From an uncultured bacterium (GTDB lineage Bacteria > Omnitrophota > Omnitrophia > Omnitrophales > Aquincolibacteriaceae): a DNA stretch of 64,000 nt. The notes beneath the pieces are model-generated. The model did no database searches and was not told the origin of the DNA. It worked only from the letters and a program-made list of their open reading frames with translations. Below are positions 5,497-40,035 of the stretch, one piece after another. A program made the position numbers and the translations under genes. Location: the NCBI GenBank assembly GCA_964434115.1, contig CAYSSX010000005.1, forward strand, positions 95,063-159,062. Direction: 5' to 3'. Every line of letters starts with the position of its first letter. Position 1 is the first letter of the stretch.

Positions 5497-6102
<606 letters not shown>

Positions 6103-6129
6103 ACAAAAAGTTTTAAGGAATACAGCGGG

Positions 6130-17532: not shown

Positions 17533-18078
17533 ATGAGAAAAAAGAGCGCCCCCCTCGCCGCGCTGGTCTTGAGTCTGCTGTTCCTGCAGTCTCCGGTAAA
17601 AACAGAGGCGGGACAGGAATTCCGGAGTTTTGAAACCATCCCTTCACCCGCGGCCGAAGAAAGAACCGCCGAAGACCTTGCCGCGGAAGGTTATCAGCGC
17701 GTTTCCACCGCGCAGAACATTTCCACTCCCATGGTCGAGAAAATGGTGTATGACCTTTTTGAATCGTGGAACTCTCACACGCTCGACCAGAAGCTGTCGC
17801 GGGACTTTCCGAATAAAAACCGTCTCAAGGAAGCGATTCAAACCGGCGTTCCCCGCCACGTAAAGCTTCAGGTGCTGTCTGTTCAAAATCCCCGCATCGT
17901 GGAACAGTATGTGCGTCCGCATCCGTCCGGTGACGGCACGTACCAGCTCCTCAGCAAAGTTTCCGTGCGTGTTCATTCGCAGATCGCGGCAAGCTCCAGC
18001 ATCCGGAGACAATTTCAGCGCGTCGACGGCGTCAGTGACTACCTTTTCCATGTGACCCAAAAGGTTAAAGCCGCATGA
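17533..18078 (+). CDS. secreted/periplasmic hypothetical protein
   Basis: The start was chosen at MRKKSAPLAALVLSLLFLQSPVKTEA (signal peptide). The ORF-track start at 17410 lies inside the preceding gene. The stop overlaps the next start (ATGA). Confidence 0.55.
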   Translation: MRKKSAPLAALVLSLLFLQSPVKTEAGQEFRSFETIPSPAAEERTAEDLAAEGYQRVSTAQNISTPMVEKMVYDLFESWNSHTLDQKLSRDFPNKNRLKEAIQTGVPRHVKLQVLSVQNPRIVEQYVRPHPSGDGTYQLLSKVSVRVHSQIAASSSIRRQFQRVDGVSDYLFHVTQKVKAA

Positions 18079-20321
18079 GGAAACGCTCTCTCGTTCTAGC
18101 TATGGCCTTGCTTCCGCTGGGAATTCCCTTTGCGCAAGCCTCACAGGCCGGGGACCTGGTAGACTCCTCGCTGGATTCCCTTACCGACTGGCACATCGCC
18201 GGGCAGAACACCACCCGTTATGATCTGTATGATGAGAACGGCTACAAGCCTTCTTCGGTTTACCCCTATGATGCCAGCCAGGTTTACAATGAAACCCGTT
18301 TGTCTTTTGACCGGCAGCTGTCTCAGTATGAGTCCCTGACTTTTTCCTCCGCCGGGCTTCTGAACGGCTCTCAATACCGCAGTTCGGAACAAGGCTGGCT
18401 TTTTGAAGATATTCGCGCAAGCTGGCAAAAGGGAGACGGCTTTGTTCCTTTTCGCGCGGACCTCGGCGATTTCACCGCCAACTTCAGCTACCGCACCATT
18501 CAGCAGAACATCAAAGGAACCCAGATTGAAATTCAGCCGGACCTTAAGATCGGCAATCTGGAACAGCGGCACTCCCTCATCGGGTTTGCCGGCAGTCAGC
18601 AGCAGGATTACCGGGACTATCAGCTGGACCGCAATACTTTCAGCGGCGGCTCATGGCTTGTGGACCTTGCCAAGTACGGCGTCTGGGCCTTTCACTTCGT
18701 GGATAACTTCCGGGAAAAGGACAACACCAACGGCTATTTAAAGGCCCGTCATCAGAACACCATGGGCCTGACCTTTGAGAAAATTTTCAATCTCGCTAAT
18801 CAGAGAATCGGCGTTGAAAGCGAAGTCGACCGCTTCGGCGGGGATTATGATTCCTTCACGGACCCTTCAGGCGTTGAGCAGGACAAATCAGGCATGGGGT
18901 ATTTCTTTAAATTAAACGGCGCGAGCGGAGACCTTTTTGATTACGGCTTCCGTTTTGAAGATTACGCCGATCACTTTCGTCCGAATGGCGGCGTGATCAG
19001 TTCCAACCGGCGCACCGTGGCTTTCAAACTCGGCGGCAATGTCTACAAACAGCTCCGGCTCGACACGCGCTACGAGGCCTTCCGCGACAATCTTTATTCC
19101 TTCAATCACGTGGACACAAGTTCAGGCGGCCTCTCGCTCGCCGGTCCGATTGAAAACAAATACCTCCGCGATCTGAACATTTATCTGGATGTTTTTCGCG
19201 AGAGCATCGACAGCGAAGACCGCTTTTATAATGTACGCACCTGGTCCTACGTGGGGCATATTAATTCCGCGATTTACAAACAGTGGAACGGCCACATTGG
19301 CGGCAATTTCCGGAACGCGGACGATGATGTTTATCAGTACACCTCCATCACGCGCGAATACACGGTGGATGCGGGACACCCCTTCTCTTACAAGGGCGTC
19401 ATGGGAGATGCCCGGGGCGGTATCGTCTACCGGGGCATGGGCGGCCCGAATGAAGGTTTTCAGGTCGGCCCCTTCTCTTCCGTTTCGGCCACAAAAAACC
19501 GCCACAGCGTCAACCTCAACACCAAGCTTCTTGTGGATGACAGCCGCTCCGAGTTCGGGCAGGACGTTTCTTCTTTCAGTTTCAGCGGCGGCTATTCTTA
19601 CACTTACGGTCCGCACCGCTTGGCTTTTGACTTCGATATGTTCAACCGGAATCCTTATGAGTACGCGGGCGCAACGGAGGATTACCGGCTTGGTTTTACC
19701 TATACCTTCAGCTTCGACAAACCCGTGGGTACCAACATCCGCGACTTCTCACTCCGGCGCGGCTACAGCGCCCCGGATTCCGTTGTGGAAAGAATCTGGG
19801 CGGAGACAGCCCCCCGGGAAATTCTTTTCCTCGAAGGCACGGCCCCGGGCAAGACCTTGCTGGAGGCAAAAGCTTTTCTGGAATCGCAGGGCCTCAAATC
19901 CTCGACGGCCCAAGGCCAGCTTCTTATCTATGAGGTCCGGATTTTTCACGATGTGGATTGGCGCCAGCGCCTTGTGATTGAGCATGATGGCGAGCACGTG
20001 CTGCACACGGCCGTGCTTTTGGATCTGGATCCGGGTCTGAATCCATCACGTTCTGAAGAAGCTTATGAGCGGGTGCGCGGGTTCCTGCTTAAGCGCTACG
20101 CGAACCCGTCGACGGAAATCCGCGAAGGCGAATTTGGCCCGGATTATTCGAGCCTGATTAATTCCGGGCGTCTTGTCCGTGTTACGGAATGGACCACTCC
20201 GGCTGGCAAACTCCGCTTCGGTCTTCCTCATCGTTTTGGCCAGGCTGCCCGCATGGAAATTCATTACGCTCCGGAATTGCCCGAACCCCGCGAATCGCGC
20301 TGGGGTCTTGAAGCTGTTTAA
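18075..20321 (+). CDS. outer-membrane beta-barrel protein (porin-like, 748 aa), hypothetical
   Basis: A signal peptide (ALLPLGIPFAQA) is present. The body is Gly/Tyr/Asn/Asp-rich with alternating amphipathic beta-strand character throughout. The C-terminal aromatic-rich segment is typical of OMPs. Confidence 0.6.
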   Translation: MRKRSLVLAMALLPLGIPFAQASQAGDLVDSSLDSLTDWHIAGQNTTRYDLYDENGYKPSSVYPYDASQVYNETRLSFDRQLSQYESLTFSSAGLLNGSQYRSSEQGWLFEDIRASWQKGDGFVPFRADLGDFTANFSYRTIQQNIKGTQIEIQPDLKIGNLEQRHSLIGFAGSQQQDYRDYQLDRNTFSGGSWLVDLAKYGVWAFHFVDNFREKDNTNGYLKARHQNTMGLTFEKIFNLANQRIGVESEVDRFGGDYDSFTDPSGVEQDKSGMGYFFKLNGASGDLFDYGFRFEDYADHFRPNGGVISSNRRTVAFKLGGNVYKQLRLDTRYEAFRDNLYSFNHVDTSSGGLSLAGPIENKYLRDLNIYLDVFRESIDSEDRFYNVRTWSYVGHINSAIYKQWNGHIGGNFRNADDDVYQYTSITREYTVDAGHPFSYKGVMGDARGGIVYRGMGGPNEGFQVGPFSSVSATKNRHSVNLNTKLLVDDSRSEFGQDVSSFSFSGGYSYTYGPHRLAFDFDMFNRNPYEYAGATEDYRLGFTYTFSFDKPVGTNIRDFSLRRGYSAPDSVVERIWAETAPREILFLEGTAPGKTLLEAKAFLESQGLKSSTAQGQLLIYEVRIFHDVDWRQRLVIEHDGEHVLHTAVLLDLDPGLNPSRSEEAYERVRGFLLKRYANPSTEIREGEFGPDYSSLINSGRLVRVTEWTTPAGKLRFGLPHRFGQAARMEIHYAPELPEPRESRWGLEAV

Positions 20322-20332: not shown

Positions 20333-23300
20333 TTACGCGGAAGCGGCAAAGGCGAACTGGTTGAGGTAGCTCGCCGCAAGATCTGCAAGAAAAGGTTTCA
20401 CCTCGTAAAACACTCCCCGCTTTTCAATCCCGCTTTGAAAGAGAATCTGATCCGGATCATAAGACAGCGCCACGGCAAATGTTCCCGGACGGTCTTCTGA
20501 AACTGCAAAAAAACGGATCGTCTCCAGCGCGCTGGCGCTGAAGGAAGTCAAATCCCGGTCCCTTCTTGCAAAGGCCACAATCCCGTTTTCCCGGAATTGC
20601 GGGCCCAGTGACCGGAAAACGTCTTCTCCCCCGGCCTGCGTCCAGACAACATTCGGGAAGGATTTAAAAAGATCCTTAAGCGCGAGCACGCGTTCGTGTT
20701 CGGGCATAACATTGTGAATCACAAACCGGACATCACTGCGCTGGCTCACCGTAATCGCCGCTTCACGGACCTCTTCCGTTGTAAATGTCACGAGGTCACG
20801 GAAATCAATCATGGCCGCGCCCGGTTTTTTCACCGGTTTATAAAAACTTTCCAGGGAATTGTCCTGAAACCTCAGTTCGGACCGCGCCGGGAGAAAAGGC
20901 GCGATCCGGGGGTCATCAACAATAGAACTCAGCGTCGGTTTCGCCCTTCCCTTGGGCCACCCGAATTTCATGCCCAGCTGGTTAGGACTTGTGATCCCTC
21001 CGCCGGCCAGAGCGCGGTAGCGCGCCGCAAACTCCGGCGCTATTCCAAGACCCCAGAGAACTTCCGAAATCGAAAAAACTTTTTCCTGAAGGTACGCGTG
21101 ATTCTGAAAGGCTTTATTCTTCAGCCCGTTCAGATTCGTCCATCCGGCCGCATCCAGCCACGCGAGAATTTCCTGCTTTTTTCCTTCCGGATTTTTTGCA
21201 TCCAGAACTTTTAGAAGACCGCCTGCCGGAATTTCGATTTTTGAAAAATCAACCTTTGCGGACTGCGCCATTCTTTTATAAGCCGGCGTTGTCACGCCTA
21301 GGCCTTCGGCCGCGTAATCAAGATGCCCAAGATGCGCGGCATAAGACTCCTCAATTTTCTTCTTCGCCTCTTCCTGAATGCCCAGAAGTTTGACCAGTTC
21401 ATCGTAACCGCGCGTCACCACCCAGGAAACTTCCGGATGCGCATCTGTAAATTTCTTCAAATTCCAGGCATATGTTTCTTCAAGCTCCTGAAGGACTTCT
21501 TCCTTCGTCATCGCAAGCGCTTTCAAAAGGTCAAAGGCCGAAGCTGTCTCAGGCTGTTTCTTTTTAAATTGCGCCAGCTCCTTCAGGATCCGTTCAATGT
21601 TCGCTTTGGCGGAGGGCGTGTCGAAACCAAAGGATTCTCCGACGCGAATCATAAGACCGCCGTATTTCGCTTTTCGATCCGACGCCTCATAAAGAAAATC
21701 CTCCGCGAGGTTAAGCCCCCACAGCAGCCGCGCGTAAGAGAAGCCCGGGCTTTTGAGAAATTGAAACCCCGGCTTCGCGGCAAGAAATTTTCTGAACTCC
21801 ACAAGATTGAAGGTTGTCCCGTTCTTTTCTTCGGCAAAGACCGCATAGAGTTCCTTGCGGATCGTTTGCGCGGGTTTCTGCCCGGTTTTTTCAAGCCTTT
21901 GAAGCAGGGTGCCCGGAGGAATTTCTATTTTTTCGAAATCAATCCCAAGGCTGGCCGTTTGATGATCATAGGTCTTTGGCGGAAGCCCCATCAAGCGGGC
22001 AGCTTCCCTTTTTCTTCCCACGGACTGCTGATAAGCCTGAATATAGGGGGACCTGATTTTATTCGCCCCTTCCTCGAGGCGTTTACCGCGCGCCTGGGCC
22101 GCCATCCGCACCGAGACATCCAGGGACCTAAGCGCTTCGGCATTCCACGCATTCAACAGACGAAAGGTCTTCATGTCTTTCTTAAGGATCCATGCCGCGA
22201 TCAAATACTCTGACGCCTGATCAAAGAGAATTCCGAGATCGCGGTAAACCGACTGCGCGGTTGACTCGCCCATTTCCCTCCGGAGAATTTCCCGGATATT
22301 TTCAAAATCAAGAATCATGCTCTCAAGGAGTTCCATTTTCCTTATTTTCTTCTGCGCCTCGCTGCCGGACCCGGGCATCTTCTCAGTGCCGTGCAAACGG
22401 TCAAGGTCACGGTAGATGTCTGCGGGGGCCGCCCATTCCTTTGCCCTCAGTTCAGAACGGAACGAAGGGTGATACTTTTGAATCTTCAAATCCTGAAATC
22501 CTTCGCCCATGACATCCACGCCCACAAGGACAAGTCCCGGGTTTTCAATTGCTGACCTTTTAAGCTTCAAGATCACGGATTGTCTTTCAGGTTCTTGCAT
22601 CCACGCCCACACATTGTTAAAACTGATAATCCCCGCTCCGGAAAATAATTTCTGCAGTTCTGCGGACTCGGCATTTCCTGTCACGACACGGATGGCGGCC
22701 GAAAAATCCTGCGGGCGGGCTTGCGATGCTTGCATCAGTTCAAAAGCAGAACGCATCACCTCTGCCGGGGCACCCCGGCTTGCGGCAACAACATCAAGGA
22801 TATCCAGTCCTCCGCCCGAAACCTTGCTCCTGGACCTTTGGGCCATTTCCTCAAATTTTTCATAGCCCACAATTTCATAGGTCAGATCACTGTAGCCGGG
22901 TACCCTCTTTATTCTTTGGAGAATCCAGGCCCAGAAGAAAAGCTCCTGCCCAAAAGACGGCCCCATCACAACCACAGCAAGATGCTTTGTCTTGAGCGCA
23001 TCAATCTGCCGGAGGACGAGGTTGAGGTACCAGGACTCATGCGACATGAACCGGTTTGCCAGCTCAGAGTAGGCGTTGAATTTCTTATAAGCAGCCCCTA
23101 GATCCTGCCGGCGGGTATAGCGGAACATCGCGAGCAGAAGCTCGTCTCCGCGAAGCAGGTCCGAAACCACTCCTGTGAAGCTTCCCCGGTATTGATCCCG
23201 GAAAAGACGCGTCACCGAAAAATGCGTCATAAAATCGAAAAATTCTTCGCCGCTGACTTTTCCTCCCGCGGCTTTTTCAAGAACCTTATAAATCGCAGAA

Positions 23301-26300
23301 AAGTCCTTCATATATGAACCGATATGATCCTCAAAAAGAAGCACCTCGGGAATTCCCGGTTTTCGCCACTCCTCCGCGGCCCGCAAGTCCCACTCGCTCT
23401 CAGCCCTAAGCTCGGCCCGCTGCCCCGGCTCAGCGGCAGCCGCCGATTTTTTCAGAAGTACTTTCCAGCCGATCAAAAAAGGCGTCTGCTCCGGCTGAGG
23501 GACTTCAAAACGCTCTAATTCTAAAACCGTGAAGCCGTGGGTCTCGAAAAGGGTTTTTAATTTTTCTTTCTCCGGATCTCCGAAAGCAGCCGCGTGTTCG
23601 AGGTAATATTTAAAAAGGCTTATATGGCTGCTGATGTCGCCGCGCATCTCTTCAAGGGCGGGAATGGCTTTTTCTCCAGCAATCAAGATCAGTTCCATCT
23701 GATCGATGACCTCCTGAACGGTATCGGTCTCCTTTCCGCTTGCGCTGCGAACAGTTTCTTGAAGCGCGCTATGAGCCGCGAGAACCCTTTCAGAAGTCTC
23801 AGGACCCGGGTCCAGGGTATAGTCCAGAAGGGCTTGAACAACCCCCGATTTCTGAATTTCCTCCATCTCCCACAGCCTTTCGCGGACGGATTCCGCGATA
23901 ATGGAGCCGCTGTGGTGAATCACCAGGGCCGCGGGCGCGCCCGGCTTCAAAACCTTATTAAGGGCTTCAAGGGCACGGCCGGGATCCTGCACATACTCCA
24001 GTCCATAAGAGGCTGTTGCGGCATCAAAAAACTCCGGCGGGAAAGCTTCTGCAGTATTTTCAATTCGGGTCTGATGAAAATAAATTCCCTGTCCGGCGGG
24101 AATGAAGGAAGGATCCAGAGGAGCGCTGTCCACTCCATGAAATTCGGCTGAGCTCCCGGAAATTTTCAGGGCCTCGGCGGCTCCGATCCTGGGAACAAAC
24201 AGGCGGCCCGTGCCGAGATCCAGAAACTTTGAACCCGGTTTGTTCTGAAGCACACCGGAAAAAAATTCTCCGAAAAACTTTTCAACCGCGGCCCTTTCCT
24301 CTTCAAAGCCTTCCCCAAGAATTGAAATCTGCCCTTCTTCGCGCCACTGCTCAGGCCAGACATTTCCGGACTCACTCTCGGTGCTCCTCAATTCTGAGCG
24401 GTGATTTTTTTTGAAATAGTCTTTGGCCGGTGCTTTGGCAGTCTCGTCCGAGCCCGGTGCGGAAACCCGGTTTTGGATCGCCGTCAGGATGAAGGATTCT
24501 ACGTCCTGGATTTCAACCGGCGAAATCAAAGAGCGGACCCGGACCTCGTCGCTTGCCGCATCTTTCCACATCAAAGCTTGCCAGCCCTTATGAACAGCGG
24601 ACTCAATACCAAACCAGTCGTGGAGATTCGTATCCAGATTCTCAAGCGTTGTCCTTAAAATCACGGGTTGAGCCCCACCTAAAACATCAAGCTGCAGGGC
24701 AAACGCCCCTTCATGGGGCCGCAGGTGAACAGCGCGAATAGTTTTAAGATCCGGAATCTCAGGTTGTGAAATACCGCTGTCTTCAGGGATCTCAAGTTTA
24801 AAGATGAGTTTTTTCAAAGACGGCGAGAACGGCTGGCTGATGGCGACCAGGTTGTAGCCCTCGTCTTTCAAAAGCAGCTGCGTGTGCAAATCCTGTTCAT
24901 CCACAGGAATCACAATTGAAGTGAGGCTGTCCTCTTCCGCAATTTCTCGAAGCTGCTGGAGCAAACGTCTGTCAACACCCCGAAAGTTCAACGCTGGAAG
25001 AATTCCCATACGCTCCACCATAAGACGCTGTCCTATCTGGTGATAAGCCAAATAGCCAGCGGAATTATGTTCATGTTCCGCGGTCAAAACACGGCCCTGT
25101 TCATTTTGCACAAAATCAAGAAATGCACTGAACGTCCAGGGCTCTTTCCGATCCACGCGCGCTGTTTCAATTTTGGATTCGAACAGATGAAAATCTTCGA
25201 CCTTATGATCCCGGACAGTGACTTCAAGCTGGCTGTAATCCCCGCCTTTGAGGCGAAGCCCGAGAAGGCCAGCAACTGCTTCAACTTTTTCCGCAGGGAG
25301 TCCAGAAGTTTTTGAAAATGCAAAGGCCGTCAAAGGCAGCTCGCGCCCTGATCCTTCAGGGAGAAGTTCCAGCATTCTCTCCTTTAGTTTTTGCTCGCGG
25401 ATGGGCATGAGAATGTGATCGGCATCGTAGGCCGGAATTTCCGGATAACGTGCAACCGCTTCGGCTGTCACCAGCTTTTCAAGCGGCTGCCGGAGAGCCC
25501 AGGCATGCATCTGATTACGCGGGTCCCTGACCCTGTCATGGCGGGCGGTTTCTTCAAAATCGATTTCTTCCGGATCTTGCCGGTATTCGAAAAGATACGC
25601 ATCCTCCCCTGTGTCTTCGAAATAGTCCCGGCTGACTTGCACAGCCGAAAAACCCTGAGAGCGCCAGAAAATCTGGGCGCGCAAATCGCTTTCACGGACG
25701 ACCACGCGCAGCCAATTACGCTGCTGGGCGGAAAGCTTTCCTTTTAACTTCTCAACCATTTCATGCCCAATTTTCCGGCCGCGGGTTTCCGGCTCTACTG
25801 CAAAATTTAAAATCTCGAGGCCCTTGCGATGAAGTGAATAGACCATGAACCCCTTCACAAAGTCGCCAATCTCCGCGACCATTCCGATGACGTTGCGCTG
25901 CCGAAGGGCCCGAAGAAAATCTTCGTCCGTCCAGGGCATCGAGAAACTTTTCCCTTCAATGTCAAGGACCTCAGGCATGTCCCGCCGGATCATCCAGCGG
26001 ATATGAAGCCCCTTAACGGGATCACGGCTGACATAAGGTCCTTCTTCTGGGAGTGTCCGGCTGGGAGCCGCGGGTTTCTCTGTCACAAGTGAAACTCCGT
26101 AATAGGCGAGTATCTTTTCAGCCTCTTTCGGGTTTAAACCAAATTCCTCGGCCTGGCTGATAAATGCCGTCATAGTTACCGGGGTGCGCTCCAGGCTTTG
26201 AGCCCATCGGCGGAAGTGTTTTTCACCTTCGGGAATTTTACGGATTGTTTTCTCCAGCAAGTAAAGGCTTTTACCGTCCTTCAACTCATACTCATCCAAA

Positions 26301-29300
26301 AACTTAAATCCGGCACGGGTACGAAAATTTCTTCCGCCGTCCGCGAAGTCTTCAACGGGAAGTTCCCACAACATCCGGTTAGGAGAAGCTGTTTTCGCTG
26401 CGTCTTGATCTTGAAGGTGTTCAGTGAACCGCCGAAGCATGGCGCCGGGAACAGTTCGCGCCGAAAAGGCGGCATCCAGAATCTCATACGTTTCTCCGCT
26501 TTCAGAATAAGCCAAATATCCGGTCAGCCGGCCGTAAGAACGAGCTTCCAGAATTTTTCCTCCACGATTCAGAAAATCCCTGAAGGCCTCACGGGTCCAT
26601 TCAAACCGCGATTGCTCTTTCGCAAAACTTGCAAGATCTTCGACTGAAGAGAGATCCGCCGCGCGAATCCGGGTTTTATAAGCTGGCTGTTTCACTGTTT
26701 TCGAGTCTCTCGTCCACGGGCTGACTTCCTTGCGCTTAAGGCTTTCCAGAACGCCTTTCGGGCTCGCGGCCATCTTGAGCTCCCGCTGCTCTTCCATGTA
26801 CTTTTTCATTTCACGGAGTTTGCGAAGAAATCTTGCGGCCTGTTCCTTGGATTGAAGCAGGTTCGCATCGATTTCCGGATGCCAAAAAACAAATTCGGTC
26901 ACAGACTTTTTCTGCCAGCTTTCATCCTGCTCCGAAAGCGAAACAAACCCTGCTTTCTTGAAAAACTCGCTCACGGGTTCGTTTTGCACGGGCACGTCTG
27001 CGGAAACAAATGAAAGGTTTTCCTTGTTCATGATCCACTTAATATGTTCCAGCATCTGGCTGCCGATGTAAGAGAAGCGGTGCGCGGGATCGACGGCCAT
27101 TTTCTGAATGTCGATGCGCTCTTCAAAAATCTGATACACGATATAACCCACCACACGGCCTTCTTCATCCACAGCCACAGTTTTAAAACGGTTAAAGCCT
27201 TCTTCCACTTCATCCATGAGTCCCCCGCCGGAGTCCTCGCGAGTCTCATCTTCTTTGGGTTTTTCCTGAAATCCCCAAGGCGACCAGCGGTCAGGAACCC
27301 GAAAGGCTGCGCTTTCAATCCGCATCACATCATCAAGGTCTTCATCGTTCATATCCCGTATCAAAAGGGCCTCGGCCGGATAACCGCCGCGCGGCTTGAG
27401 ATTATGCTCTCCGAGAATGCGCCGGACCATCAGAGCACTGAGCCCGGGATATTTTCCCCGGATGTCTTCAAAATTAAGGGAAAGCTCTGCTCCGGGCGTC
27501 TGGCGCAAAGCCCAGGCCCGAAGAAAAGTCATGGGTGATGGAACATACTCTTCGGGAATTTCTCCGCCTTCTTCAGGACGCCCGCCCCAAAGCGGTGAGT
27601 AATAATCGAGTGTGTAAAAATCTTTCTTTCCAGAAGACCTCGATTTTTGGACATGCTGATGCTTGGACTTTCCGAAATACTTTAAATCGCGGAAAGCAGC
27701 TTCGAGAGTCAGCACTTCTTTGCCGTCGTCACGGAGTTTTTTCTGGGCCATGCGCCAAAGCACCCGCAAGAGCATTCGCGGGCCTTGGGCAGGATCAACA
27801 GCATATTTCAAGACTTGCATGCCGGACTCTGTAGGCTGATACACAAGATAGGCTGCGATGGAACCGTTTCTAAGCGCAACGATCGCCCGCGCCCCGTAGG
27901 CCGTCTCCAGATGTTCCCAAAACGTTTCGCCCCAGGGATTTTTCAGGCGTGCATCAAAATCAAAAAACGTTTTCAACTGTCCTTCAGGAAGTTCCCGGAT
28001 CTCATAATTCTGTCCCCGGGCTGTCACGGCATGCGTTCTCGTGACCTCATAATTTTCATGCGTGCCTTGATTGGCCCAGTAAGGCCATGTTTTGCCGCCG
28101 TCCAGGGAGTACTGAAAAGTCAGTGTTCCGGAAAAATCACTTGGCAGCGTTACGCCAACCCTATATGTGCCGTTTTCAAAATTGTCGTACAGCGTCATCT
28201 CAAGGTCATTTTTCCACTCCACGTCTTTTTCGGTTTTGTAATGAACACGGGCCTTAATCCATTTCTCAGGATTTTCGAGAATGCGGTCGGTGTGGATATT
28301 GAAATAAAACGCCACCGGGGTCTTGTCTGTGGCTTCGATTTTCCGGCCTTGAACTTCCTGCGCTCCGGCCATGACGGCAAATTCGCCATACCCCTTCCCT
28401 GCAGGATGAACAGGCCCTTCTTCGAGCGGGGCCCTCAATTCGCTGCGGCCCTTATCCTGATCTCTGGGATCAAGAGACCGGAATTTCGTCACAAGCAATT
28501 TGGGAGAATCAGCAGGAGACTGCCCGGTAATTTGGTTGTACGTCTGCGCGGTTGAAACCCCTGAAATGCTATGGACGGGCTGCTGCCGCGAATAAGGGGG
28601 AACTGTTTTCGTCAAAGCGCCTCGATCATGGACGGTGATCATCACGACGTCCTGATCCCCAGAGGGCAGGGAGCCGAGACCGATTTCAACATCAAATGTT
28701 TTTTCCGGATACGCAAAGGCCAGATAATCCGCCGCCGCCTCAAGAGCTTCGTCCGCACCCTCTTCTGTTTTTACATAATAGATTTCATCTGCCTTCACAT
28801 CCGGATGCGCACGGACAGCGATGGCTCCGGCAGGACCCGGCGTGTGCACGGTGGTTAAATTCATACCCTGTGTTCCCTGCTGAAGAAAACGCGTGACCAT
28901 GATCGGTTTCCGGGGATCAGGCTGAGAGCCCTCAATCAGCGACCGCGCTTTTGAGAGAGTCTCTTCCCGCCCAAGGTTCTCTACAGGGGAAACTTCCGGA
29001 TAAGGGACATACTGTTCCAGGGAATGCTCCATGCCCCGCAGTTCGCTGCGGACCCCGTGCTCGCCGTTCAAAGGAAGAACATGGGTTTCTTTGAATTCGC
29101 GGAAAACATCCGCCCCGCCGGACGTGATGAAGGAATTTTCCAGCACCTCCTGCACTAAACGGAATCCATCGCGGACCTGCGCGAGATAGCCTTCCGGTTC
29201 ACGTCTGTACATGGCATGTTCAAGGCCCATCAAGTAACGCTGCCACGCGTGGTCAATCACATTCAGCTGGCGCTCGCGGGTCCATAGTCTCTCCTGCTTT

Positions 29301-32300
29301 GTCAGCTCAAGGAAAAGATCGCGGGCTTCATAAAAAACACGCCGGTAGGGATCCAGCTCGTCGTCATAAAAAAGAATCTGCCTGCGGCTTTGCCGGAGGA
29401 TCTCTTCGCTGCGGGCCTGGTCCCCGAAAAGACGGAACGATTCGTCTTCCTCTGATAAAAACCAGTAAACCTCACCTGGATCGCCGCGCCGTGCCGCACG
29501 CAGCTTTGCCTGGTCATCAATCCTCCGCGAACGGCTTTTACGCGTCATGATCACGGCAAGGCCGCCGAGCGCGCGGACATCGTCTTCGATTTTAATATTC
29601 ACGCCACGGCCCGCGACGCTGGTCGCGATTGTAATCTGGCCTTTTTTACCGGCATTCGCGACCGCCAGAACTTCTTCTTCCAGATCCAGCCCGTCGATCA
29701 CGGCCGCATCCAGAGATTCCTCTTCAAGCGCCCGGGCAAGAGCGCGCGCGTCCGAAATGCGTTTGACAAAAACAAGCACGGGCCTGCCGGCCGCGTGAAG
29801 TTCCGCGATTTTTCCGGCGATCAAACGGTCTTTCTCGTTTTTCGTGCGCGTCACGACCGGCGGATGTTCTACCAGCAGAGTCGGCGACTGCTTGGGAATG
29901 CTGATATAAGTCAGTCCGTAGGTTTTTTCAATTTCCGCGGCGTCATTGCCCATGGTTCCCGTGATAATGGAAAATCGGCTCCGCCGCTGCATCATGCGGT
30001 AGTAATTCTGGTACGTAATCAATCCGTTGTGAAAGGTGGGCTCAAGCAGTTCAGCCTCGTTTCCATGATAGGTTTCTTTCGCCGCGATAAACTGATGCCG
30101 GTGATTGCCGAGCACATGATGGGATTTAACTCTTCCCGTGAATTCATCCACCAGTTCAATTTTTCCGTTTCTCAAAATATAATCGCCGTCCCGTTCATTA
30201 AAATGCTTGGTCAGAAGCGCCTGGCGGAGCAGGTTTCCCAGTTCATGCTCACGCATCAGTTCAGTGAGCTTGAGCGTGTCAAACTGCAGGTATTTTAAAT
30301 AGTGGATCGCGGCCAGAAGCCCGTGCCGGTGAAGCTCCACCGATTCTTTTACGGGATCAATCTCGTAATCCGTGTCTTTGGAAAGGGCAAGCGCTGTTTG
30401 ATAAAGCATGAGGTAATCAACCTTTCTCAAACGGGCGGCTGAAAGAGCGTCAGGAGAAGCCAGAATCAGTGGATAACCCGATTCATCCAGAAGGGTCGCG
30501 TCCCCCTCATCAAGAATCACAATGGAGGGACCTCCGGGAGGCTGCACCTTCTGATCCAGCCGCTGTTTTCTCTGATCATAAAGAAAATCAAAAACAAACA
30601 AGTCTTTGACTCCATAAACAATGTCGCTGCGGTAAACGTCTTTCTTTTGAACTGGCTGACGATGGCCTTGGTTATCTTTGTAAGAGGAGGATAAATGCTT
30701 CTTTCCGGGACGCCTGGAGCCGCTTGACGCGGGATCAAAAAGATAAGGCTGGTCGGCTTCCGTCATAACACCGACGCGCATGCCAAGAAGGTCGAAGACA
30801 GGCCCCATTTCCTGGGCATCACGCCCGGCAAGGTAACTGTTAAACGTGTGAATGTGCGCAGCCCGGCCGCTCAGCGCGTTAATATACGCCGCCATCGCGA
30901 TAGAAAGCGTCTTGCCTTCTCCGGGCTCTTTCTCAACAGCGCTGCCGCGGTGAATCGCGATAGCCGCGGCCACTTGTTCATCCGACGGATACTGTCCGAT
31001 CCTGAAACGCGCAGCCGACTTAAAGACAGCGGCGGCCTCTGAAAAAATCGAATCCACAGTTTCACCGGCCGAGAGTCTTTCTCTGAAAGCTTCTGTCGCG
31101 GCCCGGAAATCCGCTTCTTTTTGAAAGCGCCCTTCACGGCGGTCTTCGTTTTCACGCTGAGTAATTTTAGCGGCAAGGTGCCAGATTTCAGCACGGCCAT
31201 CCGGCGCGACACCCAAAACTCTTTTAAGGTTTTTAAGGATTTCCGTATCCCGGACAAGATCAAAACGTGCTCCCAGGATATTCCTGATTTCTTCCGGGCT
31301 GAAGGCGAGCTTCACCTCTTCAGCAAACTTTCTGAGAAGCACTTCGGGAGTTTCTCCGCGAAGCATTTCAAATTCAGATTCCTCAACAAGATCATGCATA
31401 GTCCTGTAAGCAATCCCCGTTTTCCGGGTCGTTTCGCGCTGGTTACCCGCATGCAAAATGAGTGCTGAGATCGCATAGGCACGTTTTAGCTTTGCGAGAG
31501 TCGTCAATTTGAAGTCCCGTGGGAGCTCATGGCTGAATGAATCCTGAGGCAAACGGGCTTTGAGATACCGGGACAGCTTGGAACGGCTGATCCCGAGAAT
31601 TTTCACCGCGTCCGTCTGAACTCCGCGCGCATAGGTCATTACATCCCGGATATAATCTTTCTCCCTTTCGGCCCAGCTCCGGATAACCTGTTCGTCCGAA
31701 ATACCGGAGCGAAGTTCGGAGCGTACAGCTTCGCTTTGAGGATCGTCGCCGGTAATAACGGTCCACATGCCGGATTCTTCCTGAACTTTGTCCGCGAACT
31801 CTTCGAACTCGCGCCGGACTTGCGATTTGATTTGAAAAATATCGATCCACAGAACTGCGGCCGTACCCCATGCCAAAAACTCAATGAGCAAGCCGATCCT
31901 TCCCGCAGCCGGACCGAAAAGAAGGCTGAGTGCGGCTGTAAGAAGCGCCAGCACTGCGGTCTTTTTGTACGAAATCGAAAACCTTGCATGCTTGGCAAGC
32001 CATGGCCAGCGCTTAAAAAGATCGTTAACCCCTTTGAGCTCCGAAAGAAAATCCGCGGCAAGGGTCTGATCAATCACTGCCGTCAAGTAAGGGAAAGTAC
32101 GTGCGTCGGAACGGGGGTTAGAAATCGTCACCCGGACCTGATGATTCCACGGCACAACAAAATCAAGGCCCGCGTACTGTCCGGAAATTTCAAAGGCATT
32201 CCGGCTGTCTTCCGGTGACCAGGAGCGCACAGTTTCGCTCTTCCGGTAGCCGCGCACAATGAGACGGGTGCGCGAAAGAATTCTCTCCAAAGCCTCTCTG

Positions 32301-35300
32301 GCGAACTCTTCGCGGAAAAGATTCTGGTAAACGGCAGTCATGGCAAGAAAATGATCCCGGACATGGACTTTTGAAACTTCGGGAAAGTCTTCTTCCCAAA
32401 CCTGCCAGGACCGCAAAACACCCCGCTCGAGATTTTCTTTGATTTTCGCCCAGCTCTGCGTAACGCCGCTGTCAGAGGCAATCCAGTCCCTGAGAATCAA
32501 GCCTCCATTTTCGACATGAAAAGATGTTTCAAAAACATCGAGAAAGGCTTCGACGTTTCGGAAGCCCTCTTCCCGGGACACGTTCATTGCACTTCTCAAA
32601 ATTTTCCAGACGGCTTCATTTTCTTTCGCAGCCGCTTCATAACGTGCTTCAGCCTGCCGGGCCGTTTCATGATAGAGACGCGGTTCCTGCTTCCTGAGCG
32701 ACTCCGTCAAATAGTCTTCCGCGTAACCGCTGAAATCACGGAGTTCTGAGCGATCAAACGTCTCACCGCCTGCGGCCGCTTCGGGGAATGATTCGATTTC
32801 TGCAAGCAGGAGTTCGGGAAAGTTCAGCGGGTGCCCCTGAACTTTCTCGCTGCGAAGGGGCTTCCAGTGAGTTTTCACGATAAGCTGAATGCGTGTTTTG
32901 GGTTCCGTTTCCTCGCGGTAGCGGGCCAGTATTTCCCGCGCACGTTCCGATATCGCTGCCGCCGCCAGGGTTTCTTCATAATCAAGAGCGCCCGGAACAT
33001 CCTCTTCCGAAAGGGCCTGAATAAAAGCCGCTGCGATCATGCTTTCATATTTTCCAAACTTGGGAAGCAGACCGTCTGAATCAGAAAAACCGACCACGAG
33101 ATCGATATCCGAATCACGCCCCAGTTCAGGAGACACAAGCTGCTTGAGGGAGGCGCCCTGAACTCGTCCTCCGACCCACACCGCCTGAACCGGGTAAACC
33201 GGAAGCCCGGCCCCGCGCGCGGAATCCGCGTAAAGCTGAAGAGCCTTTGCGGACACGCGCCGAATCCCCCGGAATGTTCTTTTGTAGTTTTCCGCTTTCT
33301 CAGGCGTGATGGCGCCCGCGCTAAGGGCTTCCTCCACCCGCCGTTCATTCACGCTCACCACATCTTCATATGTTCTGATTTCCCGGTAGCGCCCAAAAGG
33401 CTCGTTGGTGCGCAGTTCGGAGCGGCTTTCTGAAATCCGATTGTCTTCAACAAGGGCAACCTTCTGCCCCTCCGTTGAAAAAAGGCGGCGGACAAGTTCT
33501 GCTTTTTTCCATTCACGGGGAACCAGCCGAACTTCCTGAACAGCCCAATCCCTGGGAATGGCCATCCCGCGGTAAGTTTTGTGTTCAAGATCAATCACCC
33601 AGATCTTGCTCCTGTGAATATCCACAGCAGCATAAATTTGCCCATACAGCCACCGGACGTTCTGAAGCCACTCTCCCAACTGAGCCGGGCGGGAGACGCC
33701 GGGCATTCCGTTCAGAGTGATTTCGCGCACGGGCTCAAATTTGCTGTCAAAGACCTGGAACTTTCCATCGCGTGTACTGGTCACCAAATAGTGGTTGTTC
33801 CCGATTTTTCTAAATCCATGCGGGCTTGAAAAACCGCTTAGGACTTTCAAGGTTTTCCCTGAGGCTTTGTCAACCACAAGGGTTTCGCCCCGATGGAAAA
33901 GAGAAATCAAAATCGTGTTGGAATCAAGAGCCATCGCGCTGTTCAAATGCACCGCTCTTTGACGCGTAGGAATGCCGAATTCCCCCCAGGTGGAAGGGTC
34001 TTTAACCCAAATAACCTCTCTGTGTTCCGCTTCAAGCTTCCGGGCTTCTTCTTGTGAACGGGTTAAAAAATTTCCAAACATCGACTGGTTGTAACCATGT
34101 TCCCAGGCGTTCCATTCCCAAACCACACGGTCACGATAGGTGTCAATTTCATAAACCGCATCAAAGCCGGTTGAAGCAGCGAGAAGGTATCGTCCGTCCG
34201 GAGAAAATTGAACCGTATGAATGTGTGCAAACCAGGGGTAAGTGTAAATTTTTGTGCGGCCCGTTTTGCGATTCAAAAGAGTAATCGTGTTGTTGCCCCC
34301 GACCGCCATCCGTGAACCGGAAAAATCCACATCGTGCGGCTCAAGAGCACGCTCTGACCAGAACGAACTTGCTTCGTCCATGCTGTCATTTTTCAGAGAA
34401 ACGGCGAGGATCCGGCCCTCTTTGTAAGGCCTCGACGCTGCCCCTCCTATCACTTGAGGTCCGGGTTGAAGCATGGATTGCAAGGCCCGCTCATCCGTTG
34501 CGGACTGTTCCATGCCCTTAACCGTCACAATAACGTTTTCATCCCGCGCAAGGCCGTTGTCGTATTGAAAACCGGAAAGCTGTTCTGGAATACCCGCCCG
34601 GAGCTCTGAGCGGACAGAATCATCCTCTTCCCCGTCATAAATTTTAAGAGCTGAGACGGGGAGATCAGGTTGTTCGGACACTCTCTCCGGCTCCTCTCCG
34701 GGAATAAAAAGCTGGGGCTTTTTTGGGGAATGTTCTTTCCATTTTTGAACCACTCTTTCGGCTCCGCTCATCAGAAGCCCTGCCGTAACAGCGATTAATC
34801 CGGCGCCTATTTCCTGCGCCAGGCTTAAAGACTTTCCCGCTGCGACTTGCGCGGCGGAAGCAAAAGTTAAAAAGGCCGCGGCATTAAGAAGGAAAAAACC
34901 TGCGCGCTTGATTCTTCCTTCAGCAACGGCAATCACAAAAAAGGCGCTCATCAAAAGCTGCATGCCGGCAATAAACTCTTGATGCTTTGCGGGCAGAAAC
35001 TGCGCGAACACTTGCCCGGCTTTTAAAGCCGTGAACGCGGCTCCTCCCTGCACCAGGAACCGCACCGTTTCCTGAAAACCGCTTTCTTCCTCATCGCCGG
35101 GTTCTTCCGGAGCGGTTCTCAGTTCCGAACGGACGCGGGGAATCAACAGCTTCACTTTTAATCCCTGCTTGTGCTTGATTTTTGAAACGCCTGTTTCCAT
35201 CCACGGACGCCCAATAATTTCACCTTCAATTCCAAAAATAGGCAGTGCAAAATGTTCACGCGTCCAGCGGTTGAGACTGCGGACCCAAACCAGAGAAGCA

Positions 35301-38300
35301 AACCAGCCCGAAAAGTACCTTTCACTTTTCTTGTCATACTGCACAATAACTTCCCCGCCGAGAATCCGCCGGATCACCGCGTCAATCGCATTGTGATAAC
35401 CGTGTTTGCGGACCCTGCCAAATTCATCAGGATATTCTTCGCCCATGATCGACCGCCGCACACCTTCCGCCCGGGAGGTCAACGCGCCGCCGTCCCGGAT
35501 AATGAATTGAACATTCTTAGGATCATCATCCAGCCGGTAAAAAAACATGGCGCCCATGGGGTCCACGTGCCGGATATTGGCAATCAGCTCCGAGAAAACC
35601 GGCGTCAGCTGGCCCGCCTTAAAAGAATCGCCCGGCCGGACAGAAAAATCGGGGACGTCCGATCCATACCGCTCGCGGAAGATTTTTTTCCCTTCTTTTG
35701 TGACAAGCTCTCCTTCAATCCCGGCATGATAAATAAACAGGTCTGTTGTGAGAGTTTTCAACTGGCTGAGCCGTTCCGACTCGGCAGCCACCGCTTCGTC
35801 GAGAATGGCGAGCAGCCCTTGATCAAACTCCGCGGCGGCTTTCATGTAGTTCGGCGTTCCCATCGGATGAGCCCTCAGCGTGCGGTCTTTTAAAGCTTCG
35901 ATAGCGGGGCCCATGCTGTGCGTCTTGCTTCGGTACCAGTGTTTCAAGAGCTTGGACACGATTTTGTCCGCACGCCTTTCGGGACTGGGCTCTTCCGTTT
36001 CTTCAAAGGGTGATTCATCCATTTCCGCGTCCGGATCAACGCGGAGTGCGGAGTGGGCCTGCTTACCCAAAGCGGCGTCATGAAGTTCGCGGCTAAAAGC
36101 ACCCGAACGGATTTTTTCATCAATGTCTCTCAACACTTCAATATTTGTGCTAAACCATCCGTAAACATTGCCATTACGGTCAATAATCGCCAGGGACTGC
36201 TCCAGCGGATCCACGGCCGATAAATCATAAAGATGGCGTTCCGACAGTTTTTCCGGGCGCACCATCCAGGTCATCATGTCAAGGACATGGCGTCTTGCCA
36301 TTTCAGGAATGGCCTGGATCTCTTCTTCCGTGAGCGCCTGGTTTTTTTGATACCGCTCGACTTCCTGCCGGAGTCCCTGAAGATTGAATGTCCGGTCGTC
36401 CGTTGTGATTTTAAAAATGCCTTTGAAAAAATCATAAATGCGGACTTCTTTTCGAAGATGGTCCCAGTCAAACACGGCCTTAACCTGGTCCCCTTCATAC
36501 GTCATGTTCCCGGGATGGAAATCGCCATGAACCAGAGTCTGAGGAAGACGGGCATAAACAGGCGGCGGAAGATTGAGATTTAAAAGGGAGATCTGTTCAA
36601 GGAGAAAGCTGGCGTTCTGCAGAAAAAATCTTTCCCCGCGCGTCAACACAGCGCTGGGATCGGCCTGTTTTTGAACCAGCCTTGCCTGAAGCTGCTTGAT
36701 GCGTTCTTTCTGGTTTTCAAAATCCAGAATGGAAGGGCGGGTACGCTTTCCCGTTACTTGAAAATCCCGCAGGGTTTTATGCATCGCAGCTAAGACGTCG
36801 ATGGAATTTTCAAACTGCTTCGTGTTCAAGGTCTCAGGCGTAAGATTTTGGCCTTCAACAAAATGATAAAGCAGGTAGATTTTCCCGTTTGCGGCTTCTA
36901 CAAAATAGCGGTCTTCATCAAATTCCCCTGCGGGTTTTGTCGTCGGCACCAAGTCCGCGGCCGGAATCCCTTTGCGCACCAGTTCCCGCACCACGGACAC
37001 TTCAAAACGAGCGCCTTCTGTCAGCTCGGGATAAAGCACACGGGTCAGCGGTTTAAGAATGTACTTGCCCTTGCTTGTGGTGACCTGAAGAGATTTGCCG
37101 TGCTCCCCGATCCCCCCGGCTGTGGGGCTTATTTTCTGAACTTCTCCGAGGGCATACTGCTTCAGGACTTCTGGCGCAGCTTCCAGATCTGCGCGGGCCA
37201 TCTCGGCCTGCCAGCGCGCGCTTCGCACATCTTCCCTGTCCGGATCTTCTGCCGTTTCTTCCATTCGAAGCTCGGCCCTGGCCGCTGTTTGACCGGAGTC
37301 ATTTTTTCTCGTCTTACGGAACCGGAGATCCGCTTCACGAGCCATTTCGGGCAGATCGCCGGATAAATTCCGGACAATTCCGCTCAGGCTGTTCATTTCT
37401 TCCGCAATCCGTTGACGCACCTCGGGTCGGCCTGAATTTTCCATTTCAAACAACGTGATAAGGCGGGCCATGCCCGAAGCAATACCCGAAGCAAAAATGC
37501 CTGACCCTGCGGCCATGCCCTGCCGGTAATATTCCTGGTGTCTTTCATCAAGGTGCGTGACCCGGGGCACGGCCACGGCATAACCCATACCCAGGTTTTC
37601 CAGAATGCTCCGGATGCGGTCCGAATGAAATCCTCCATACACCAGCACCGCGGTTTTCTCATCCGGAATTTTTGAGAATTCTTCCACAGCTTCACGGATT
37701 TTTTCGTCGCGTCTCATCGCGGTCTCATAAAAACCGCGCGCGCACTGAAGGCTTTCTTCCCACCGGCGCGGCAGCACAATCGTTTTCTTTCCTTCGCGCG
37801 CCAAAAAGGCGGCAAGGTCCTGAGTCTTGAAAGCGTCGAGGGTTTCCTTCGAGGCCTGGTATTCGGCGGGAGTGACTTCGAGTTTGTTCAAACGGTGAAA
37901 AAGGCGGACGGCTTTGAAATACTCATACAGTTGTTTTTCCCGAGGACTCTCAAGCAGGGCTTCGGCAAGGCCGTCTTCGAGCCGTTTCATTTCCAGAAGA
38001 AGCTCTGAGGCCCCCCGCTGATTCACGCGGTCTAAAAGATCGGCTTGCTTGGTGTCCAGCGCCCGCAGCATTTCAGCAGAGGCGGGGTATAAAATTTCAA
38101 ATTGTCCCCCTGCCGGCGAAGCAAGGTAAAGGCGGCAGACCTCCCTCAGATAAACCGCGAAGTCTGTTTTGGTTTCTTCAAAACGTTTCTTCGCACGCAG
38201 AAAATCCTGAAGCTTTTTCAAACCGAGAGAGCGTGTAAGATTCTCCAGCTCTCTTTCCACAGCCAGGAAATCCTCTTCCACATCTCCTTGAACACGCACC

Positions 38301-39020: not shown

Positions 39021-39401
39021 TTATTCGGATGCTGCTATCTTGCCAAAAAAACTGGGAAACTTTTTCAAACACTCGATGGCGTAGTCCACAAACTGAACCG
39101 CGACGCCCGTGCCGTCACAGCGGACAACCCAGCCGCTGACCTCAAGGACGGGCGCATCTTTAAAAACATCGCCCAAAGCGAGACGGCATACACACCGCGC
39201 ACCCGTGGGGAATTGCTCGGCGCAAAGAATATAAGCACCCTTGACGCTGATATCACGGGTCCAGCCGCTGATCTGGCGCTCACCCGCTGCCACAACCTTT
39301 GTCTCAAGGCGGATCACCGCGCGGGAAAACTCGCGCCGTTCCCGTTTGTGATCACGGGGAAATTCCCTGCGGTCTTTATCATTATCAGAGGGTGTTGTCA
39401 T
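39021..39401 (-). CDS. PilZ-domain c-di-GMP-binding protein
   Basis: PilZ motifs are present (RREFPR / RREFSR, RxxxR type, and DISVKGAY, D/NxSxxG type). It lies 175 bp upstream of the giant gene in the same orientation. Confidence 0.7.
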   Translation of the reverse strand: MTTPSDNDKDRREFPRDHKRERREFSRAVIRLETKVVAAGERQISGWTRDISVKGAYILCAEQFPTGARCVCRLALGDVFKDAPVLEVSGWVVRCDGTGVAVQFVDYAIECLKKFPSFFGKIAASE

Positions 39402-39435
39402 TGTTCACACTCCTGTGCTGGCTGAAAATTTCCGG

Positions 39436-40035
39436 TTAAACAGCCCGGGTGTAATTAATTTCCATCACCTTATACTCCTGACCTTCGGGAGTATAGGAGT
39501 AGCTGGCGTAAGTGTTGTGGTCCGCATCCGTGACCGTCCAGTCGGAACGGCCTTTGCGGTCTTTTTCCCCGGTTAATGGGCAGGAGTTTTCGCCCGACAA
39601 GGAAAGTTTTTTGCGGTCGGGATTGTAATCACCCGCGGCCGTCATAATGCCCGTGGCCATGCTGTCGATCCAGATTGAAATGTACTCGCCCTTGATGTTG
39701 TCATACCCGGTGAACCCAAGGCCGTTGAATGTCTGCCCCATCCATGGGCCTTCAAATTCCTGTTTCAGAAACCGGCCGCCGTAAATCATCTCGTTAACGG
39801 CGGTGCCCGTCATTTCCTGAGCTTCGCTGTCCGGGGTCATCCAGAATTTTCCGGTGTACGTCCACTTGCCGGTAAAGGCCTCAAGCGCCTTATGGGCTTC
39901 TCCGGGAGACATCAGGGCCTGCATTTTCTGCATCGCGGCAGGATCCGCGGCCGGAACTTCGGCTTCAGCGGCTTGAACCGTGGAACCTAAAAGCAGCACC
40001 ATCGAAAACACCATCATCATTTGAAGCGGTTTCAT
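39436..40035 (-). CDS. secreted DUF1579-like protein
   Basis: A signal peptide (MVFSMVLLLGSTVQA) is present. The body GTWTYTGK...GYDN.KGEY.S.WIDSM resembles the DUF1579 family. Confidence 0.5.
   Translation of the reverse strand: MKPLQMMMVFSMVLLLGSTVQAAEAEVPAADPAAMQKMQALMSPGEAHKALEAFTGKWTYTGKFWMTPDSEAQEMTGTAVNEMIYGGRFLKQEFEGPWMGQTFNGLGFTGYDNIKGEYISIWIDSMATGIMTAAGDYNPDRKKLSLSGENSCPLTGEKDRKGRSDWTVTDADHNTYASYSYTPEGQEYKVMEINYTRAV

Follow-up and report, generated by a model that had tools for sequence, protein, structure and literature searches.

A recurrent R-[SA]-E-hydrophobic-R motif at the module junctions of a giant Omnitrophota protein family: candidate processing sites of modular polyproteins

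We analysed a 64,000-nucleotide stretch of contig CAYSSX010000005.1 from an uncultured Omnitrophota bacterium (hereafter, the window), in which a single open reading frame (ORF) of 6170 codons, starting at TTG, occupies positions 20333-38845 of the minus strand. The database protein P0046 (6,161 amino acids (aa), coding sequence 20333-38818) is identical to its product from Met10 onwards. According to Pfam and NCBIfam matches and hydrophobicity, this giant protein strings together unrelated modules, namely an APH kinase, transmembrane (TM) hairpins, a WD40-like propeller, an HTH_8 domain with a SecA-like motor, GNATs and a methyltransferase. A pentapeptide with the family-wide consensus R-[SA]-E-hydrophobic-R recurs at the junctions of these modules, and sequence comparisons indicate that it is probably a cleavage site. 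We propose that the giant protein and its family are self-processing modular polyproteins, an explanation to which, taken whole, we give an even chance; that the conserved N-terminal domain is also the cleaving enzyme is a more tentative suggestion.

RSELR occurs ten times in the giant protein, where 0.02 copies would be expected from its own composition, and is its commonest pentamer, the runner-up having four copies. Two further sites read RAELR (Table 1), and none of the one-residue variants xSELR, RSxLR, RSExR and RSELx was present besides RSELR itself. Six-frame translation of the window yielded no RSELR outside the frame of the giant ORF, and the sole further RAELR (49068-49082) is at chance level. 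An earlier note on this DNA had listed eleven copies and put the chance expectation at about 0.01; the expectation is indeed tiny and all eleven positions and coordinates proved correct on re-translation, but the second RAELR, at aa 523, had been overlooked.

None of the sites lies within any Pfam envelope of the giant protein. The modules flanked by sites are the two-TM unit (1289-1335), the weak WD40/beta-propeller, the HTH_8 domain with the SecA-like motor, the GNAT block and one methyltransferase. The earlier note had placed the motif always at module boundaries, bracketing the motor and both methyltransferases. The motor and one methyltransferase are bracketed as described, but module 5148-5462 gave no methyltransferase match, and "always" goes too far, since some paralogues carry a copy inside their C-terminal domain (see below).

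The codons used at the sites vary as the note had stated (Ser as TCA, TCC, TCG, TCT and AGC; Arg as CGC, CGT, CGG, AGG and AGA; Leu as CTG, CTC, CTT and TTG), and no DNA repeat family covering the sites was found, so the motif is conserved as a peptide and not as a DNA repeat. A signal at the DNA or RNA level (a recombination hotspot, an RNase site or a translational pause) is an alternative, and a recombination signal could explain why modules are gained and lost exactly at the sites, but the codons vary freely both within the protein and between orthologues (with switches between TCN and AGC, CGN and AGR, and CTN and TTG), and the degenerate DNA pattern of the motif is present in the coding frame only. 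We regard such a signal as barely credible, together with chance or low complexity, against which stand the counts given above and the rank of RSELR as the top pentamer in 429,500 aa of family sequence.

Comparison with relatives showed that the sites are also the points at which the proteins differ in content. In the genomic relative L003 (56-77% identity), RSELR is found at six of six shared sites with synonymously changed codons, and the pentapeptide is identical while its flanks show substitutions and indels; the additional modules of L003 are inserted at the equivalent of site 1808. Every shared site is likewise retained in P0104 (4033 aa, 60-71% identity) and P0113 (2465 aa). The alignments of these two proteins with the giant protein start and stop at sites, and the modules that the giant protein has in addition lie exactly between two sites (e.g. 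3472-5142 and 1239-2032). The earlier note had named absence of the motif from equivalent linkers of homologues as what would refute its proposal; every shared site was kept at 56-77% identity, an outcome in favour of the proposal.

The two RAELR sites of the giant protein align to RSELR in relatives, and because three relatives have RSELR at the position of RAELR 523, this copy is a true site. Near SRELH (aa 918-922), after the kinase region, the homology to L003 and P0113 resumes; SRELH, which aligns to RSEIR of P0039, is apparently a decayed site, and sites can evidently be lost and neighbouring modules fused. Family-wide, 42-44% of the ends of BLAST high-scoring segment pairs (HSPs) fell within 15 aa of a site, compared with 5.5-8% for random positions.

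The surroundings of the motif have the character of linkers. Hydrophobic residues dip around it, from about -5 to +20, and in an AlphaFold model covering the last 204 aa the predicted local distance difference test (pLDDT) has block means of 50-58 around RSELR 5988 (below 50 at model residues 24-28), followed by a domain with pLDDT >90. Judging from the synonymous codon changes and flank indels in L003, the motif sites are selected at the peptide level.

A search with aa 1171-2500 returned one relative, P0001 (1533 aa, with a NUDIX module), which has four RSELR. Common to the two proteins are ~450 aa at the N-terminus and the propeller module, flanked in P0001 by two RSELR. An N-terminal 530-aa query returned 32 proteins, the named ones from Candidatus Omnitrophota, and RSE[LVMF]R directly follows the N-terminal domain (N-domain) in almost all of these homologues that extend past the domain. 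Searched against 1.84 billion representatives, a profile of the N-domain matched 9,067 clusters at E<=1e-3, of which 5,111 reached E<=1e-30. All matched proteins carry the domain at their N-terminus, and their lengths range from 0.3 to 6.7 thousand aa, many of the short ones being truncated.

We examined the motif in a family sample of 170 proteins (429,500 aa) based on the top 150 of the 9,067 matches. RSELR is the top pentamer with 211 copies, followed by RSEVR (148), RSEMR (119), RSEAR (80) and RSEIR (36), and it outnumbers the invariant motifs of the N-domain, each of which occurs once per protein. A position-by-position scan gave the consensus R-[SA]-E-[LVMAI]-R. Arg was found 594 times at position 1 compared with 13 Lys, and likewise Glu with 7 Asp at position 3 and Arg with 11 His at position 5; position 2 is Ser (594) or Ala (165, about a fifth of sites), and position 4 is aliphatic (L, V, M, A or I). 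Information content is limited to the five motif residues, with weak preferences for a small residue on either side (-1 and +1) and for acidic ones at +2 to +7. The median spacing of sites is 349 aa, and the first site lies at median aa 536, just past the N-domain. Up to 21 sites were found per protein (P0091; P0050 has 15), and P0167 uses RAELR throughout, in 8 copies. Five distinct Pfam regions in three other motif-rich paralogues all lie between sites, a small set of domains with little power.

Pairs or triplets of motifs 16-40 aa apart are common in P0091 (502/518/553/594), P0056, P0079, P0108 and others; if cut, such closely spaced copies would release short spacer peptides.

The labelled relatives belong to Candidatus Omnitrophota with one exception. 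The best 79 genome loci come from Omnitrophota metagenome-assembled genomes, save for unlabelled records and one labelled Planctomycetales, and a single genome has up to five paralogues in the set of matches kept.

Ser and Ala exchange at orthologous sites, which would be expected if the second position were a subsite requiring a small residue and not a hydroxyl. This bears on the idea of a covalent modification of the motif (Ser phosphorylation or acylation, Arg methylation or ADP-ribosylation) by embedded modules, for which the earlier note had named the kinase, the GNATs and the methyltransferases as candidates. An APH-type kinase, several GNATs and a methyltransferase are indeed present in the giant protein, and neither terminal Arg of the motif can be replaced. 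However, with Ala in place of Ser at about one in five sites, orthologous positions included, the Ser hydroxyl is dispensable; P0001, which has only the NUDIX module, and P0091 and P0050, which gave no Pfam match, carry the motif at equal or higher density; and only the N-domain and a C-terminal domain are shared universally in the family. Modification by the embedded enzymes, on which the earlier suggestion did not hold up, therefore appears very unlikely.

The motif is associated with the N-domain. Among the ORFs of 80 loci and 44 kb of the window, motif density was 1.8 per 1000 aa in ORFs with an N-domain and 0.13 in the others. At least two sites were present in 69 of the 85 ORFs with the domain, one site in 10 and none in 6; for the 544 ORFs without it, the corresponding numbers were 7, 3 and 534. 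All seven N-domain-less ORFs with at least two sites are cut by the edge of the locus or by a run of N, which puts their N-termini out of view, and several of them end in ...[AS]A, as the family does. Clusters of motifs thus occurred only in ORFs that have the N-domain or whose N-terminus is cut off. A dedicated protease gene in the neighbourhood was sought as a candidate and rejected, as no conserved neighbour gene family was found around the family genes.

At five loci (L006, L012, L017, L023 and L081), an edge ORF with the motif and a ...[AS]A end lies directly upstream of a family gene on the same strand, an arrangement that suggests tandem arrays of family genes. These edge ORFs did not match the hidden Markov model of the C-terminal domain, and the family may have a second type of C-terminal end.

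An AlphaFold2 model of the N-domain (pLDDT 84) has an alpha/beta core with a parallel beta-sheet that is superimposable on Ere, ChaN or RRSP C2; Foldseek ranked the same proteins first, though not significantly, and PF04187 (ChaN, Tiki superfamily) matches the domain in 2 of 14 members (best E 8.5e-5); the profile gave no sequence match in the PDB. In the giant protein, the conserved residue set is D83-x-H85, E113 and H407 (within GGFH). The D-x-H is kept in 144 of 146 members and GGFH in all 146, and a Glu stands exactly 28 residues past the His of D-x-H in 141 of them. The same His-to-Glu spacing of 28 is found in Bcr135 (H85/E113) and RRSP (H3902/E3930), and TIKI-family enzymes have a 2His/2Glu site, the superfamily including the site-specific endopeptidases TIKI and RRSP (PMC6254334). 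The N-domain thus shares with this superfamily an acid-x-His, a Glu 28 residues later and a C-terminal His at strand ends; the correspondence follows motif order, spacing and secondary structure, without residue-level superposition, and the first acid is Asp, not Glu. Judged from the model, the N-domain has a TIKI/TraB/ChaN/erythromycin-esterase-like fold, and because its catalytic-type residues are almost invariant, we take it to be an active enzyme of some kind. It differs from the known superfamily in its sub-threshold Pfam scores, in Asp as the first acid, in a large helical insertion, in being always fused to a polyprotein N-terminus and in its proposed substrate, the protein's own linkers.

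The insertion, between core strands at aa ~169-391 (window ~37673-38341), is all-helical and contains many conserved acids (E285, E290, E328, E363). It could be a lid or a substrate-binding surface suited to the Arg-rich motif.

Under the explanation that we propose, each member of the family consists of a hydrophobic N-terminal segment, the ~430-aa N-domain, a variable string of modules and a C-terminal domain, with the motif carried by hydrophilic linkers. The motif would be a proteolytic processing site recognised by the family's own N-domain. By cutting its own chain or those of paralogues, the domain would set the modules free as separate proteins, in the giant protein the kinase, two-TM units, propeller, SecA-like motor, GNATs and methyltransferase. 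What points to processing is the sharp five-residue island in unconserved, hydrophilic linkers of low model confidence, the homology breakpoints and the gains and losses of modules at sites, the interchange of Ser and Ala at position 2 while Arg/Lys and Glu/Asp exchanges are almost absent, and the strict co-occurrence of the motif with an N-terminal TIKI-fold hydrolase domain. Repeated processing sites in a polyprotein, one of the readings offered in the earlier note, is therefore the best supported of them, with cleavage itself a prediction. By analogy with proteases that have a conserved block on the P side and a small P1' residue, we would weakly favour a cut after the second Arg, before the following Ser, Ala or Thr. 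A cut before the first Arg, which would give product ends like the natural ...[AS]A, was rejected because the preference at -1/-2 is too weak (Ala 17%).

Several points weigh against the processing explanation. The family sample consists of top matches and may not represent all, and 9 of its 170 members are longer than 1,000 aa yet lack the motif under a Ser-only pattern (at least one of these, P0167, has RAELR instead). The GNAT block extends over 1,344 aa without an internal site, and several paralogues have a true motif copy at a beta-strand start inside the C-terminal domain (NRSELRLV, QRSEVRFV, SRSEVRLV). Foldseek returned no significant match for the N-domain (best E 0.1), and on the giant protein PF04187 reaches only E 0.16, under the gathering score, so that the Pfam matches are sub-threshold. 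Because the TIKI superfamily also holds esterases (Ere), haem-binding ChaN and the inactive PMT (PMC6254334), the fold alone is no proof of peptidase activity, which for the N-domain is a prediction. Judged from its sequence, the N-terminal segment resembles a signal peptide and would then place the N-domain outside the cytoplasm, yet many modules (kinase, SecA-like ATPase, GNAT, S-adenosylmethionine (SAM) methyltransferase, NUDIX) need cytoplasmic cofactors. Cleavage, its enzyme, the bond cut and the compartment are all inferred.

Some of these points would suit an unlinked, trans-acting protease of the cell, its prey or its host, with the N-domain serving for anchoring, export or esterase activity. 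A highly specific, linker-located motif under peptide-level selection fits such a protease equally well, TIKI-fold proteins are not all peptidases (PMC6254334), and the signal-like N-terminus may separate an outside N-domain from cytoplasmic linkers; in addition, C39 and S8 peptidase domains were proposed as the processing enzymes of other Omnitrophota giants by West-Roberts et al. However, in proteins without the N-domain the motif occurs only at chance level, which would be unexpected for the site of a general protease, no conserved protease gene lies next to the family genes, and the N-domain has kept its catalytic-type residues almost without variation. Pfam and NCBIfam also detected no peptidase domain over the whole giant protein, an HEXXH metallopeptidase included. 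We consider a trans-acting protease distinctly unlikely.

The family also shares a conserved C-terminal domain (C-domain) of ~164 aa, which is C-terminal in 89 of the 170 proteins and reaches the last residue in 79; the remaining proteins without it mostly look like truncated fragments. It usually lies 15-60 aa past the last motif. The motif, the N-domain and the C-domain are the constant parts of the family. The chain ends in hydrophobic-x-hydrophobic-x-x-[A/S]-A-COOH, with the final Ala as the only invariant column. Such a nonpolar terminus, Ala-Ala or Ser-Ala, is reminiscent of C-terminal recognition tags or of secretion signals. A role of the C-domain as the protease was rejected, given its generic Rossmann/HAD-like fold without an invariant polar residue. 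At the column of the C-domain where paralogues have a true motif, the giant protein has the near-motif RSDVR (aa 6036-6040, window 20726-20740); these copies might act as a pseudo-substrate, or a basic strand start might resemble the motif by coincidence, and because of the copies not every copy of the motif lies in a linker.

The copies in the C-domain bear on a further alternative, in which the motif stays uncut and is a docking signal at the start of each module, to which the N-domain or the C-domain, a chaperone or an export machine would bind, for instance so that the modules are threaded or handed over one by one or the protein is assembled. A sharp motif in accessible linkers suits binding as well as cleavage, the tandem double sites of some paralogues could raise avidity, and a motif-like sequence stands at a fixed strand of the C-domain in several paralogues and, as RSDVR, in the giant protein. 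Against this, the modules are gained, lost and shuffled at sites as independent cassettes, there is one N-domain and one C-domain per protein compared with up to 21 sites, and most docking motifs are less strict than this one with its near-exclusion of Lys, Asp and His, although this is not decisive. We therefore judge docking rather unlikely.

Recognition by the embedded SecA-like motor was also rejected. BLAST found SecA-like modules only in the close relatives P0046, P0104 and P0113, and because motif-bearing members such as P0001 have no such module, the motor is not a general reader of the motif. A homology search with this module was dominated by canonical SecA, and its sole useful match was a fragment, P0176, in which RSEAR precedes a module with the HTH and SecA composition seen in the giant protein.

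The features of the giant ORF are listed in Table 1. The HTH_8 domain (aa 2392-2429) belongs to the same module as the SecA-like motor, for which Pfam matches to PF07517, PF01043 and PF21090 were found over the whole giant protein, and none to the SecA scaffold/wing (PF07516).

Table 1. Sites and modules of the giant ORF and its product (window coordinates)
Feature	Residues (aa)	Window position	Strand	Basis or remark
Giant ORF		20333..38845	-	ORF list and P0046 identity
N-terminal hydrophobic segment, signal peptide or signal anchor	26-45	38711..38770	-	model helix 21-42; position kept across family
Conserved N-terminal domain, TIKI/TraB/ChaN/Ere-like fold, candidate processing peptidase	~58-470	37436..38674	-	profile, AlphaFold2 model, conserved residues
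Site 1, RAELR	523	37265..37279	-	aligned: RSELR in P0104, P0113, L003; RSEVR in P0039
APH-type kinase domain	586-817, within module 528-1238	36395..37090	-	Pfam
Probable decayed site, SRELH	918-922	36080..36094	-	P0039 has RSEIR there
Site 2, RSELR	1239	35117..35131	-
Two hydrophobic helices	1289-1335, within 173-aa module 1239-1412	34841..34981	-
Site 3, RSELR	1412	34598..34612	-
Beta-propeller-like module	1421-1781	33503..34585	-	weak WD40 matches (within aa 1417-1807)
Site 4, RSELR	1808	33410..33424	-	module-insertion point relative to L003
Site 5, RSELR	2032	32738..32752	-	five of five codons synonymously changed in L003; flank indels
Two hydrophobic helices	2295-2337	31835..31963	-
Site 6, RSELR	2375	31709..31723	-	precedes HTH_8 + SecA-like module
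SecA-like motor	~2559-3157	29375..31171	-	SecA_DEAD, SecA_PP_bind, P-loop_SecA
Site 7, RSELR	3266	29036..29050	-
Site 8, RSELR	3467	28433..28447	-	junction; following modules missing from P0104 and P0113
GNAT acetyltransferase block, one RimI-like	~3827-4669, within module 3472-4815	24839..27367	-	Pfam/NCBIfam
Site 9, RSELR	4816	24386..24400	-
SAM methyltransferase domain	4867-4981	23903..24247	-	Pfam
Site 10, RAELR	5143	23405..23419	-	RSELR in P0104; HSP begins exactly here
Site 11, RSELR	5463	22445..22459	-
Site 12, RSELR	5988	20870..20884	-	low-confidence linker, 20 aa before C-terminal domain
Conserved C-terminal domain, ~164 aa, Rossmann-like/HAD-like fold	~6007-6170	20336..20824	-	family alignment and model

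The neighbours of the giant gene are nuo subunits, phosphofructokinase, MraW, a ClC channel, cytochromes c and glycosyltransferases. These are ordinary chromosomal genes; the giant gene is not on a mobile element. Scans of the window for tRNA genes and Rfam families were empty. The giant gene is immediately preceded on its strand by genes for a PilZ-domain and a DUF1579 protein (39021-40035, minus strand), which are not conserved beside other family genes; DUF1579 was first defined in a planctomycete. Two long ORFs of the window have no Pfam match at E<=1e-3, one of 748 aa (18075-20321, plus strand) that is convergent with the giant ORF and ends 12 nt away from it, and one of 766 aa (55859-58159, minus strand).

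The closest functional systems are viral polyproteins, MARTX toxins and polyvalent proteins. In viral polyproteins (picornavirus 3C, potyvirus NIa/TEV, flavivirus NS2B/3), a protease within the chain recognises a short, strict site at the junctions. The Omnitrophota family resembles them in its single translation product, its recurring junction site and the small residue after the site. It differs in being cellular, chromosomal and present as multiple paralogues, in the fold of the putative protease, and in consisting of enzyme and membrane modules instead of replication and capsid proteins.

In MARTX toxins, both ends are conserved, the central modules are exchangeable, and a protease within the chain cuts linkers after Leu (PMC5218395, PMC2780291, PMC2900308). 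Like the Omnitrophota family, they are very large chains with constant ends and variable, unrelated modules swapped as cassettes, and the MARTX effector RRSP shares the TIKI fold with the N-domain (PMC6254334). However, Pfam and NCBIfam detected no RTX or MARTX repeats, no C80 cysteine protease domain and no inositol hexakisphosphate (InsP6) logic over the whole giant protein. The protein may function in a similar way but is not a MARTX member. Here the putative protease is the N-terminal TIKI-fold domain, the site is a strict five-residue motif at which cleavage is proposed, and the hosts are Omnitrophota with several paralogues per genome.

Polyvalent proteins combine as many as 15 unrelated enzymatic domains (methyltransferases, ATPases and NUDIX-like enzymes among them), with embedded peptidases predicted to autoprocess; they occur on phages and conjugative elements, and their peptidases are mainly zincin-like HEXXH metallopeptidases (PMC5512222). 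The giant gene, in contrast, is chromosomal and lies among housekeeping genes, and its product has no HEXXH match; it is not a member of this class. To our knowledge, no cleavage motif common to polyvalent proteins has been reported.

West-Roberts et al. (2023, bioRxiv 10.1101/2023.11.21.568195) described Omnitrophota giants of >30,000 aa with divergent SecA domains and proposed cleavage by C39/S8 peptidase domains, stating the cleavage points as unknown. The giant protein shares with these the phylum, SecA_DEAD and preprotein-binding domains without scaffold/wing, TM segments, GNAT, methyltransferase and NUDIX modules and the "multi-enzyme" class. It belongs to the divergent-SecA proteins of Omnitrophota, although at 6,161 aa it is far shorter than the 30,000-aa threshold of that study. 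A 2026 survey of complete genomes (10.64898/2026.06.07.730766) does not mention cleavage, processing or polyproteins. The proteins treated in the two studies have at least 10,000 or 30,000 aa, and text searches of both found no mention of the motif or of polyprotein processing. A description of the motif was not found in the searchable literature, where "RSELR" matched only the software name varSelRF, nor was one of the N-domain family or the C-domain in the literature read.

The motif makes the question left open for Omnitrophota giants, whether they act as a single chain or are cut, directly testable. It predicts product boundaries for proteomics, provides a rule for splitting giant proteins for structure prediction and, through its association with the N-domain, points to a candidate enzyme and to residues for mutation. 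Were the explanation true, polyprotein self-processing would be added to the activities of the TIKI/TraB fold, a protease fold not known in that role before, and the new pair of specific protease and site would be a possible tool. The missing cleavage map for the Omnitrophota giant proteins would then be supplied. We advance, with somewhat less than even confidence, that Omnitrophota have a phylum-wide polyprotein strategy, with thousands of chromosomal genes, several per genome, whose interchangeable enzyme and membrane cassettes stand between a TIKI-fold endopeptidase domain and the C-domain and are cut at a universal site. Ultra-small bacteria that probably live as predators or episymbionts would then rely on polyprotein expression as a major strategy, the counterpart in a cellular lineage of viral polyproteins and MARTX toxins.

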